64,000 nt of DNA, from assembly GCA_943356525.1 (NCBI GenBank), contig CALRFG010000002.1, forward strand, positions 27,783 through 91,782, read 5' to 3'. The DNA is from Candidatus Nomurabacteria bacterium (lineage in GTDB: Bacteria > Patescibacteriota > Minisyncoccia > Phycocordibacterales > CAIZLB01). Under the pieces are notes generated by a model. The model saw nothing but the letters and a program-made list of their open reading frames with translations. It made no database searches and was not told where the DNA came from. Of this stretch, positions 3,001-33,850 are shown one piece after another (positions within the stretch are counted from its first letter, which is position 1; the number at the start of each line of letters is the position of its first letter). Both the position numbers and the translations under genes were made by a program.

Positions 3001-3256
3001 ATTCCTAACAGCTGCTTCATTCCAAAATACAAACCGTATCTTGGTTAATGCATCCCTAAAAGGTCAACATGATCCATTGTACGGTATAATGGAGAATACT
3101 TTGATAGGACGTCTGATACCAGCAGGTACAGGTTTTGTTGGAAGTCAGAAAAATAAAGAAATTGTTGCTCTTCAAAATGAATTAAACGATAGTTATAATG
3201 ATATGCAAGGAGAAGAAGAAGCTGAAGTATACAATATAAAAAGAAAAATTGTCTAG
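1..3256 (+). CDS. rpoC: DNA-directed RNA polymerase subunit beta' (5'-partial; reading frame open to window edge)
   Basis: NADFDGDTM catalytic motif; conserved beta' regions across the 1079-aa ORF; no stop upstream to position 2. Confidence 0.92.
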   Translation, partial: DDEFKVKMKNIVDEKTKDALRDLMASTKADIDMIYIGKVLDENQYHKFSYKFGSAFEAGIGGEVIFNILKGLNIADLHKKLTIDLEKATSVEREKIIRRLGFINAMKKSGVRPEWTFIKALPVIPAALRPMVALDGGRQATSDINDLYRRVINRNNRLKKLYDIKAPDVILRNEKRILQEAVDALLDNSMKGNGPAFSGINPGAKRSLKSIADNLKGKRGIFRQNLLGKRVDYSGRSVIVVGPDLKLNQCGLPKNMALELFKPFVISQILKKELAFSIKGANRMIEDREEIVWSILEDIIKDKYVLLNRAPTLHRLSVQAFQPVLIEGSAIQLHPLVCSPFNADFDGDTMSVHVPLSEEAQYEAHNIMASDRNILKPGSGEATITDKMLDIVVGSYWVTKLVSSEIGADKYFESPEAAIIALNNDIISHRAPIKVLAPIDTKFGEYSGKLFDTSVGRILFNQLLPQNITFINREVNKNVMNALIDELIIKEGRNNVAPIIDSIKKFGFSFATRSGITWSISDIQIPEPKYKVLDDAQEQADSIYAAFNQGLLSEIEKHVKIIRLWQGVQSQIEKLIPATLPENGPVNDMVLSGARGSVGNINQMVGIKGLIATAQGTTIELPIKSSFKEGLTPIEYFISTHGARKGMTDTALNTAKAGYLTRKLFILAQSVIITEIDCKTHESITLTKKTASGIEVNFSKSVYGRILAADVLDENNEVLFKKGQLLSKDDAKLIDKMNIEAIEVRSPLICKTDRGVCSKCYGADMSTGDLIDVGESVGTIAAQAIGEPGTQLTMRTFHAGGVAQTGGDITAGLPRVEELFENRTPKNPAAIASHDGVVTAVIEKNNEKIIRILPDVPVKASKKTGSELEFSVHPIRIVQVKVGQHVHKGQIMTDGSADVNEIYEYAGKGEAQSYIIGEVKKIYELQGVNLGRKHIEIIVREMFNRIVITDKGDTELSMGDVVETFEFIRTNKKADENDTMPAKGRTAIMGTMEGSLNRQSFLTAASFQNTNRILVNASLKGQHDPLYGIMENTLIGRLIPAGTGFVGSQKNKEIVALQNELNDSYNDMQGEEEAEVYNIKRKIV

Positions 3257-3511
3257 TTTGCGTAAGTTTTAGATTTGTTATAATAAAAATGTCCCCGAAC
3301 AACTGACTTAGATATTTCTTTCAGGGAGTTTGTGTAGATTTAAACTTTGGTTTGAATCTTAGAACACCCACCTTAGTTTTTGCTAAGGCTCAGTTCGTTC
3401 GAGGGCTTTAAGAGGGATTGCTTCGTGAGTTTTATGAGTAAGATCATCTGTAGGACGAAGTCCGAGGACTTATGATCGAAACAAAGAAAACGAGCGATCC
3501 TTGCTAAAGCC

Positions 3512-3916
3512 ATGAATTATAACAAAAAACTATTTTTCATAAATCTTTTTTTACTTATTTCACTTATAAGTTTTGATACAATTGCTAAAGTCACAAGTTT
3601 CTATTATTTTTATCCCAACGCTGACATAATTATGCATCTTATAGGCGGATTATCTTTAACTGGCTTAGCTATATCAGTTTTAAAATATGTGAAAATGTAT
3701 AATAAAATTAATGTTTTTATTATAATTTTATTTTTATCTATATTTTGGGAATATGTTGAGTTTAGAATAGGTAGAAATATTCTTATAAATAAAAGCTTTT
3801 GGATAGACACCACTATTGATTTGCTTATGAACTCTATTGGTGGGATAATTGCATATATATGCTTTTACAAAATACCTTTAAAAAGAAAGAATCAGATCAA
3901 AAATCAGACGGACTAA
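3512..3916 (+). CDS. small multi-TM membrane protein, VanZ-like (tentative)
   Basis: hydrophobic segments; C-terminal IDLLMNSIGG resembles the VanZ family end motif. Confidence 0.4.
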   Translation: MNYNKKLFFINLFLLISLISFDTIAKVTSFYYFYPNADIIMHLIGGLSLTGLAISVLKYVKMYNKINVFIIILFLSIFWEYVEFRIGRNILINKSFWIDTTIDLLMNSIGGIIAYICFYKIPLKRKNQIKNQTD

Positions 3917-19086: not shown

Positions 19087-19097
19087 ATTAAGACAAA

Positions 19098-19125
19098 ATG
19101 ATCATTAAATGATCATTTTTTTGTT
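19098..19125 (+). terminator. terminator (ATGATCAT-TAA-ATGATCAT + T7)
   Basis: self-complementary 8-mer pair then TTTTTTT. Confidence 0.6.
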
Positions 19126-33157: not shown

Positions 33158-33850
33158 GTGTGTTTTGGTAGAATGATAAGAATGAAAAAACAACAAATAA
33201 CAAAAAAAGAAAATGAATCAGATTTAAATCTAGGTATGGTAAGAGAAAAGATATATATTATTCGAGGTAAAAAAGTCATGCTTGATAAAGATTTGGCCAT
33301 GCTTTATGGTGTTACGACTAAAGCTTTAAATCAGGCGGTCAAGAGAAATACTAAAAGATTTCCTGAGGATTTTATGTTTCAGCTGAGTAAGAAAGAGTCA
33401 GAGCTGTTTTTAAACTTGAGGTCGCAAATTGCGACCTCAAATGAGAACGAAAATATAGATCTGCGGTCACAATTTGTGACCGCAAATAAAAAAACCATGA
33501 AAAATAAAGGTGAAAAATCAATCCTAAGGTCACAATTTGTGACCTTAGGATGGGGAGATTATACAAAATACAATCCTTACGTTTTCACTGAACAAGGTAT
33601 AGCTATGCTTTCAAGTGTACTCAAAAGCGATAGAGCTATATCGGTAAATATTCAAATAATACGCATATTTACAAAACTTCGAGAAATGATAGATACATAT
33701 AAAGAACTTAGGGAAAAAGTAGAAGAAATGGAAAAGTCTAACACTAAAACATTTCATCAAATATTTGATATTATAAAATCCATAATAAAAGAAAATAATA
33801 AACCCGAAAAACCTAGAGGACAGATTGGGTTTACTGTGCCTCCTGATTAA
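33158..33850 (+). CDS. ORF6N-domain (phage antirepressor-like) protein with internal in-frame palindromic repeats
   Basis: IRGKKVMLDKDLAMLYGVTTKALNQAVKRNTKRFPEDFMFQL and YVFTEQGIAMLSSVLKS match ORF6N. Confidence 0.65.
   Translation: MCFGRMIRMKKQQITKKENESDLNLGMVREKIYIIRGKKVMLDKDLAMLYGVTTKALNQAVKRNTKRFPEDFMFQLSKKESELFLNLRSQIATSNENENIDLRSQFVTANKKTMKNKGEKSILRSQFVTLGWGDYTKYNPYVFTEQGIAMLSSVLKSDRAISVNIQIIRIFTKLREMIDTYKELREKVEEMEKSNTKTFHQIFDIIKSIIKENNKPEKPRGQIGFTVPPD

Follow-up and report, generated by a model that had tools for sequence, protein, structure and literature searches.

Palindromes translated within ORF6N genes are kept at the nucleotide level and co-vary with a predicted recognition helix of the encoded protein

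Why would a protein-coding gene carry three copies of a perfect palindrome, all in frame, within a short part of its reading frame? The question is raised by an ORF6N-domain gene in a stretch of 64,000 nucleotides (nt) from a Candidatus Nomurabacteria bacterium (contig CALRFG010000002.1 of assembly GCA_943356525.1, positions 27,783 to 91,782 of the forward strand). This whole stretch is referred to here as the window. Comparison with homologous loci revealed that one such palindrome is a feature of the gene family, that its self-complementarity is maintained at the nucleotide level, and that bases within it co-vary with residues of a predicted helix in the protein encoded by the same gene. Because of this co-variation, we infer that each palindrome is probably a dyad-symmetric DNA operator bound by the product of its own gene.

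The gene, the three palindromes that lie in frame within it and an open reading frame (ORF) on the opposite strand are listed below. Positions within a palindrome are counted in base pairs (bp) from the dyad.

33182..33850, + strand: ORF6N-domain gene, 222 amino acids, from the ORF list; an alternative ATG is at 33233
33416-33440 (25 bp), centre 33428: palindrome 1, TTGAGGTCGCAA-A-TTGCGACCTCAA, with 12-nt arms that are 100% complementary (inverted-repeat scan); half-site GGTCGCAA, with G:C at position 4; encodes LRSQIATS
33462-33484 (23 bp), centre 33473: palindrome 2, TGCGGTCACAA-T-TTGTGACCGCA, with 11-nt perfect arms (inverted-repeat scan); half-site GGTCACAA, with A:T at position 4 and G:C at position 7; encodes LRSQFVTA
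33521-33551 (31 bp), centre 33536: palindrome 3, ATCCTAAGGTCACAA-T-TTGTGACCTTAGGAT, with 15-nt arms that are 100% complementary (inverted-repeat scan); half-site GGTCACAA; encodes LRSQFVTL at the position of the single canonical copy, directly 5' of GW..Y.KY.PYVFTEQG
33372..33566, - strand: mirror ORF, 64 amino acids, from the ORF list

An earlier note on this DNA had placed three palindromes in the ORF6N gene, and the inverted-repeat scan confirmed its coordinates. The length it gave is right for palindrome 2, and palindromes 1 and 3 are each 2 bp longer on either side than it had stated. Palindrome 2 can be extended to 14-nt arms with 93% complementarity (33459-33487). All three have a single unpaired base at the centre. 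The core that they have in common, GGTCRCAANTTGYGACC, has no other occurrence in the 64-kb window even with two mismatches allowed, and its expected count in 100 shuffles is 0. When folded as a single strand, the region 33400-33565 forms three hairpins, with a predicted RNA energy of -64.1 kcal/mol compared with -28.5 in shuffles (z = -9.9); folding as single-stranded DNA gives z = -8.8. The mirror ORF, also pointed out in the earlier note, is present in the ORF list. It is a by-product of palindromes that read alike on both strands, its LRSQ(I/F)(V/A)T stretches being no more than their reverse complements, and we found no evidence that it is a gene.

To place the palindromes in their family, we used a protein-based scan with one genome per species, which yielded 80 loci from Omnitrophota, Planctomycetota, Bacteroidota, Verrucomicrobiota, Acidobacteriota, Nitrospirota, Proteobacteria, Chloroflexota, Patescibacteria and others. 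These homolog loci span 519 kb. With the window, the set comprises 81 loci and contains 109 instances of the motif, in which the dyad centre is the first base of the Ile/Phe codon and the palindrome spans 27 bp. These instances have on average 11.6 of 13 possible Watson-Crick pairs, compared with 5.1 for the same peptides written with local codon usage, and 38 of the 109 are perfectly paired. Pairing extends to position 13 and falls to 44% at positions 14-15. All ORF6N ORFs (87/87) score at least 10 of 13, at loci that range from 29 to 68% GC, and the score is uncorrelated with GC; control ORFs of similar length have a median pairing score of 9.

Compensatory changes occur at 10 of the 13 pairs, with 157 double-change cells compared with 42 in shuffles, and none of 500 shuffles reached the observed value. 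Sliding the partner by a few columns as a control reduced pairing to only 26-44%. Amino-acid changes in one arm are matched by synonymous changes in the other. Arg AGG pairs with Thr ACC, but Lys AAG with Thr ACT; Ser TCA is found opposite Val GTG, Ser TCG opposite Ala GCG and Phe TTC opposite Gly GGA as alternatives at one place; and Leu TTG opposite Ser TCA alternates with Leu TTA opposite Leu TTA. The constraint thus acts on nucleotides, and palindromy is maintained at synonymous sites.

The palindrome is also linked to another part of the protein. Upstream of it in the gene, the segment T-K-x-L-N-X-A-V-K-R-N corresponds to the second helix of a predicted helix-turn-helix (HTH), and residues X-4 and X are its positions 2 and 6, which are the usual base-contacting positions of HTH proteins. 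The assignment is based on AlphaFold2 (AF2) models. In the model of P0057, a homolog with a single palindrome copy, the aligned sequence TKRLNEAVKR lies in a helix at residues 42-51 that follows a helix at 31-38 in an HTH-like arrangement. The corresponding features in the window are:

33314..33349, + strand: predicted HTH helix 2 (recognition), TTKALNQAVKRN, T45-N56, from the AF2 model of homolog P0057
33320-33322 and 33332-33334, + strand: predicted specificity codons K47 and Q51, respectively, equivalent to family positions X-4 and X

Residue X tracks the base pair at position 4. Among 67 single-palindrome genes found by protein similarity, Gln at X occurs with A:T in 36 of 38 cases, Glu with G:C in 11 of 11, Arg with C:G in 10 of 13 and Lys with C:G in 5 of 5 (chi-square p = 8e-25). 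As the palindrome is translated, the same coupling can be read from protein sequences. Among 150 representatives with at most 50% mutual identity, Gln is accompanied by Val in 79/80, Glu by Ala in 15/15, and Arg and Lys by Gly in 8/8 and 4/4, respectively; 120 closer homologs show Glu-Ala in 16/16 and Gln-Val in 20/21. On a tree of 108 tips, for which both characters were masked during construction, 25 changes are counted for each, which is nearly the level of shuffled tips (26.6), and of 13 sister pairs that differ, 11 have switched in both characters at once. An unbiased mutual-information scan ranked the coupling of X and position 4 first, at 0.99 bit; next came the couplings of X-3 to that base pair and of X-4 to the Thr/Ile residue. 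Lys at X-4 is found with G:C at position 7 in 42/42 genes. Where X-4 is a residue other than Lys, A is the usual base of the left arm, and pairing is frequently lost (A.C in 11/25). This second coupling involves the synonymous third-codon base of an Arg/Lys codon in the left arm. The classical amino acid-base preferences are Gln for A, Glu for C and Arg or Lys for G. Protein residues and palindrome bases co-vary across the family.

Two loci (L047 and L065) are single contigs with two ORF6N paralogs of different predicted specificity, one Glu/G:C and the other Arg/C:G in the case of L047. The difference is consistent with mutual insulation of the paralogs.

We propose that the ORF6N protein would bind as a dimer, probably through its long C-terminal helix, with one recognition helix reading each half-site, (G/A)(G/A)TC(A/G)CAA. 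Helix position 6 (Gln51 in the window) would read the base pair 4 bp from the dyad, and helix position 2 (Lys47) the base pair 7 bp from it. Every family member would carry one operator copy within its own coding sequence, in a flexible loop, and the signature peptide (L)RSQ[IF][VA]T[SL] would consequently be largely a translation of the binding site. In the window, the operator unit would have been duplicated in frame to give three copies. Since the window protein has Lys47 and Gln51, it is predicted to recognise GGTCACAA, the half-site found in palindromes 2 and 3. The half-site of palindrome 1, GGTCGCAA, is of the type that accompanies Glu elsewhere, so that this palindrome is a predicted non-cognate site for a protein of the Gln type. 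For the Arg/Lys class, the predicted half-site with C:G at position 4 is GGTGCCAA. The likely consequence would be autoregulation, by a roadblock inside the ORF and, where upstream copies exist, by promoter-proximal repression; alternatively, the protein might be anchored to its own locus. Control of this self-contained kind would suit a single gene that is horizontally mobile and associated with defence. An operator array for a dimeric regulator within a coding region was among the possibilities raised in the earlier note. It is the one favoured by the co-variation of helix and bases, and the regulator would be the product of the gene itself.

The sites are concentrated in ORF6N genes. Of the 127 core-type sites in the 519 kb, ORF6N ORFs contain 113, and all but two of the remaining 14 are within ~330 bp of such an ORF. 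A scan of metagenomes with the exact pattern found 124 sites, of which 92 are within ORF6N ORFs and a further 14 are at most 500 bp from one. The motif thus does occur beyond the window, in or beside the ORF6N genes of homolog loci, where it is again palindromic DNA; the refutation envisaged in the earlier note, in which neither would hold, is therefore not what was found. A minority of homologs have upstream copies, with centres 30-100 nt before the first ATG. Such copies are found at L055 and L080, and two at L076 abut the ribosome-binding site. An ORF6N gene on a Legionella plasmid has one copy 18 nt 3' of the stop codon. The most extensive set is in a metagenome-assembled genome (L001), where six non-coding copies with a 51-bp period (3621-3915) lie in the interval from the ORF6N stop codon to the end of topA. 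The ORF6N gene of this locus contains three further copies, also spaced at 51 bp (3174-3300), and an imperfect copy is located upstream (2866-2890); parB is just upstream. The outer arms at this locus differ from copy to copy, and each is self-complementary. Non-coding copies keep the same core sequence beside the genes.

Viral contigs (L081-L123) include 43 exact matches of the 19-mer AGGTCACAAWTTGTGACCT, 14 of which are in ORF6N genes. At the other 29 phage loci (~15 distinct contexts) the 19-mer is intergenic, and is often flanked by A-runs and T-runs in the manner of a bidirectional terminator. Two composition-matched control palindromes had 0 matches in the viral contigs.

The number of palindromes per gene varies. 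All database homologs, which are mostly from Patescibacteria, have (L)RSQ[IF][VA]T between the blocks FMFQL and P.[AV]FTEQG, in 1 to 4 or more copies. Single-copy proteins that are 63-77% identical to the window protein are ~36 residues shorter (alignment A1), so that the insertion of ~45 amino acids suggested in the earlier note amounts to ~36 extra codons. They correspond to the following feature:

33429..33536, + strand: stretch of 108 nt (36 codons) between the centres of palindromes 1 and 3, absent from the single-copy ortholog L246/P0024

This stretch is modelled as disordered (AF2 predicted local distance difference test score, pLDDT, <50). The palindromes do not interrupt a canonical ORF6N domain, as the earlier note had it, since one copy is itself the family motif that is palindromic in all 87 genes; the other two are old in-frame internal duplications of the operator unit. 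Three syntenic orthologs have 3, 3 and 1 copies. The triplication is common to orthologs that are 75-79% identical, and each copy has been kept palindromic by compensatory changes. The single copy of L246 consists of the left half of copy 1 and the right flank of copy 3 of its three-copy relative, which indicates that recombination between palindromes 1 and 3 removed the intervening DNA. A recombination or cleavage hotspot had also been considered in the earlier note. Recombination between copies does occur, but it looks like a by-product rather than the purpose of the sites. Where multiple copies are present, their spacings (39-63 bp) follow no consistent helical phase. For annotators there is a warning in this: in-frame repeat expansions in ORF6N genes may be operator duplications.

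Palindromes also occur at a fixed place in genes of a Bro-N/DinD-like family (Pfam Bro-N, E=8e-7; L227:1878-1906 and L247-L275), 30 residues before S[IV]PSPKAEP. Their centre is on codon position 2, and the frame differs from that in ORF6N. The apical ACAA-N-TTGT is usually kept and the stems vary widely, with positions 3-7 paired in 17/17. A profile-profile comparison of ORF6N with the Bro-N-like family was not significant (E=0.15); homology of the palindrome position is thus not established. Two Segatella copri plasmids, L285 (NZ_CP152354.1, 2955 bp) and L286 (NZ_CP152486.1, 4140 bp), have two annotated genes each, a replication initiator and an ORF6N gene. The in-gene palindromes, GTGGTCGAAA-A-TTTCGACCAC in L285 and GAGGTTATCAAA-AA-TTTGATAACCTC in L286, are both in the Bro-N-like reading frame. 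The differing stems of the Bro-N-like and Segatella genes would fit a hairpin or cruciform component, template-switching correction or lineage-specific operator specificities.

Matches in E. coli genomes are imperfect palindromes only. One imperfect copy, TTTAAGGTCACAAATTGTGGCCTCAAA, is found on plasmids of ~95 kb (L288:1490-1530 in NZ_JBRNHF010000003.1, and ~90 similar plasmids), in an unannotated gap of ~1 kb downstream of humD. Going by no more than their size and the neighbouring humD, these plasmids are P1-like. One frame of this copy reads KVTNCGLK, like the Bro-N frame.

Several observations weigh against operators for the gene's own product. The types of non-coding copies show no clear match to the type of the neighbouring protein, in a sample that is small and was mostly collected with an A:T-type pattern. 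All three sites in the window are ~235-355 nt inside the ORF, with none at the promoter or upstream, and ~240 nt into an ORF is an unusual place for a site of repression. Palindrome 1 and the sole copy of ortholog L246 are of the non-cognate type. The helix assignment is drawn from AF2 models with mean pLDDT of 69-74, and the coupling could in principle reflect a contact within the protein, with the left-arm bases following through palindromy. Finally, the outer arms (positions 9-13) differ between copies of one locus and are nonetheless self-complementary. A single protein specificity is insufficient for this, and pairing in a hairpin or cruciform, or correction by template switching, would have to be invoked.

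The outer arms are also a reason to ask whether the palindromes are RNA stem-loops or DNA hairpins or cruciforms selected for their structure, with roles in mRNA processing or stability, pausing, antisense termination or binding of a structure-specific ligand. We consider this unlikely as the main explanation, although structure and operator are not mutually exclusive. The strong predicted folding of the window region (z = -9.9) would be expected of such elements, as would the palindrome at a fixed place in the Bro-N/DinD-like family, where the frame is another one, stems are varied and 11.3 of 13 pairs are formed compared with 6.7 expected. The different stems at the same place in the diverged Segatella plasmid genes, and the terminator-like T-runs beside many exact phage copies, point the same way. 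On the minus strand, palindromes 2 and 3 (33459-33487 and 33521-33551) each have a T-rich tail and fit the intrinsic-terminator consensus (2 found, 0.5 expected), and they could stop antisense transcription; on the sense strand, no U-tract is present 3' of the window palindromes, as an intrinsic terminator would require. Mispairs give opposite trends. In non-coding sense-oriented copies G.T exceeds A.C (26 vs 13), in line with an RNA stem, but within genes G.T is the rarer (31 vs 63), both being rare there and the count being confounded by coding constraints. Rfam covariance-model scans of the window and L001 gave no match at gathering score, and the sub-threshold hairpin-like hits are chance noise. 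A model of pure structure does not predict that helix residues track base pairs 4 and 7, or that pairing at position 7 decays in proteins that lack the Lys.

Co-evolution of touching residues could account for the coupling of helix and motif if palindromy were kept by quasi-palindrome template switching, with no binding function. The Val/Ala/Gly residue and the helix do belong to the same polypeptide, the correction of quasi-palindromes is a well-established bias of bacterial mutation, and the non-coding copies do not clearly match the type of the neighbouring protein. This explanation is rated lower, as improbable, because neither AF2 model packs the loop with confidence (pLDDT of the motif region is <50 in both, with no confident contact), because the mapping follows the classical amino acid-base preferences in all three classes, and because the second coupling, of Lys with G:C at position 7, is at a synonymous third-codon base. 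Nor would a mutational process alone hold AT-rich rare codons in place at up to 68% GC, and non-coding copies keep the core sequence beside the genes. That the extra copies are insertions of mobile palindromic elements, resembling Rickettsia palindromic elements (RPEs) or miniature inverted-repeat transposable elements (MITEs), or are sites mainly for recombination or cleavage, is very improbable. Such an origin would explain why ortholog copy numbers differ (3, 3 and 1), why L246 looks like a recombination deletion between two copies and why exact copies are found in unrelated phage intergenic regions where the two control palindromes have none. It is at odds with the copy at a fixed homologous position in 87/87 genes, and with a triplication that is common to orthologs 75-79% identical and in which palindromy is kept by compensatory changes. 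No transposase or target duplications were seen, and no dispersed copies were present in the 64-kb window or the 519 kb, save beside ORF6N genes. The in-frame MITE or hairpin insertions proposed in the earlier note are thus rejected, given that 113 of the 127 sites are inside ORF6N genes and 12 of the other 14 close beside one.

Some further classes of element were considered and rejected. Repetitive extragenic palindromes and bacterial interspersed mosaic elements (REP/BIME), MITEs and RPEs would be dispersed, and the window and the 519 kb contain no such copies in unrelated genes. A CRISPR array does not fit repeats that differ from one another and spacers that encode conserved peptide or resemble one another. 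For an origin of the lambda O/ori type, Pfam identified only the ORF6N domain, and small ORF6N plasmids carry a separate rep gene.

The window protein itself is confidently assigned to its family. ORF 33182-33850 matches Pfam ORF6N (PF10543) with 120.2 bits (gathering cut-off 27.8; E=4.8e-35), in two stretches that are split by the repeat region. Pfam found no other domain in it, and no HUH or Rep nuclease motifs. The protein is 100% identical to a database protein of 222 amino acids (P0001). AF2 predicts a winged-HTH-like domain at its N-terminus and, after this, long C-terminal helices. In the model of the 205-amino-acid form, residues 77-111 have pLDDT <50, as does the motif loop in the model of the single-copy homolog. 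The best Foldseek matches are winged-helix or MerR-like and weak (all E above 0.1), and a sequence search of the PDB found no relative with a solved structure.

The window protein also matches, over the full profile length, the PADLOC phage-defence candidate PDC-S05 (PDLC04856, E=4.6e-58), and homolog P0057 covers positions 4-174 of the 177 in this profile. A representative of PDC-S05 is reported in a preprint to give ~1000-fold protection against T7 and T5 in E. coli (10.1101/2024.09.26.614923). The representative tested there is described as having a RhuM domain. A further difference is that the gene of the window lineage is located in a conserved housekeeping neighbourhood. The gene order ribosomal protein L9 - glutaredoxin - ORF6N - tRNA-guanine transglycosylase (TGT) is kept in orthologs.

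Among known systems, the closest analogues are phage lambda O with its ori iterons and HTH-operator pairs of the 434/lambda type. The lambda O gene contains several dyad-symmetric sites, the ori iterons, in a segment that encodes a flexible linker, and their copy number is variable. ORF6N genes are alike in that sites for the protein would lie within its own coding sequence, in a flexible linker and in variable copies. They differ in having neither a replication-initiator domain nor an adjacent AT-rich unwinding region, and a single site is the norm. The ORF6N site is, moreover, conserved across phyla and dictates the signature peptide, with no replication role indicated. The HTH repressors of lambdoid phages and 434 are dimers that bind palindromes with an odd or short centre through helix positions 2 and 6, and have switchable specificity classes. 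The model proposed for ORF6N has the same elements, namely a palindrome read by a dimeric HTH protein, the use of positions 2 and 6 and discrete classes. Unlike those operators, which are at promoters, the ORF6N operator would be inside the ORF of its own regulator. Because it would also be translated, specificity switches (Gln, Glu, Arg/Lys) can be traced as amino-acid changes in two parts of one protein.

The rolling-circle initiators pT181 RepC and phiX174 gene A have an origin within their own gene. Here too, the gene would harbour a cis element on which its own protein acts and which can form a cruciform, but ORF6N proteins lack HUH or Rep nuclease motifs and no nick-site logic is evident. 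RPEs are selfish palindromes that are dispersed, in frame, in many unrelated genes. They resemble the ORF6N palindromes as translated in-frame palindromes that add a peptide in a tolerated loop, whereas those of ORF6N are limited to a single gene family and the DNA directly flanking it.

A broader proposal can be put forward only tentatively. ORF6N, and probably Bro-N and other domains of the Bro network, may be modules that combine a protein with its translated operator, in which the conserved motif would be a frozen binding site and the helix a readable code (Gln, Glu or Arg/Lys at position 6, and Lys or another residue at position 2) that has been switched dozens of times. Such switching perhaps insulates paralogs or competing mobile elements from one another, or controls the defence effector PDC-S05. 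If ORF6N genes are modules of this kind, the exact intergenic copies in phages could be targets or decoys. HTH proteins with palindromic operators are known, as are cis sites inside a protein's own gene, but a signature motif that is the translation of the protein's own binding site is apparently undescribed. A literature search found no paper describing a palindrome in ORF6N, and nothing usable on binding of single-stranded DNA by BRO proteins.

Confirmation of operator function would mean that the Pfam signature motif of a very large family (39,709 clusters at 50% identity, with E up to 0.001) is explained by a constraint at the DNA level and not by protein structure. The family would then provide a natural data set, with replication across the phylogeny, on the code by which amino acids recognise bases. 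The code would be readable from proteins alone, because the operator is translated. There would also be a testable handle on the control or targeting of the anti-phage candidate PDC-S05. The parallel palindrome in Bro-N genes suggests that the principle may extend across the domain-shuffling network of phage 'antirepressors'.

Two minor features of the window may be added. The heptamer T_TTA_AAC at 33409-33415 is directly 5' of palindrome 1, in the correct frame for a -1 ribosomal slip, and U_UUA_AAC is a slippery sequence of the coronavirus type. A functional frameshift site was rejected in this case, as the heptamer is absent from orthologs L244-L246 and is probably a coincidence. Elsewhere in the window, at 19094-19120, is an unrelated AT-rich palindrome, CAAAATGATCATT-A-AATGATCATTTTT, which is near-perfect, with 11 of 12 pairs formed at positions 2-13.

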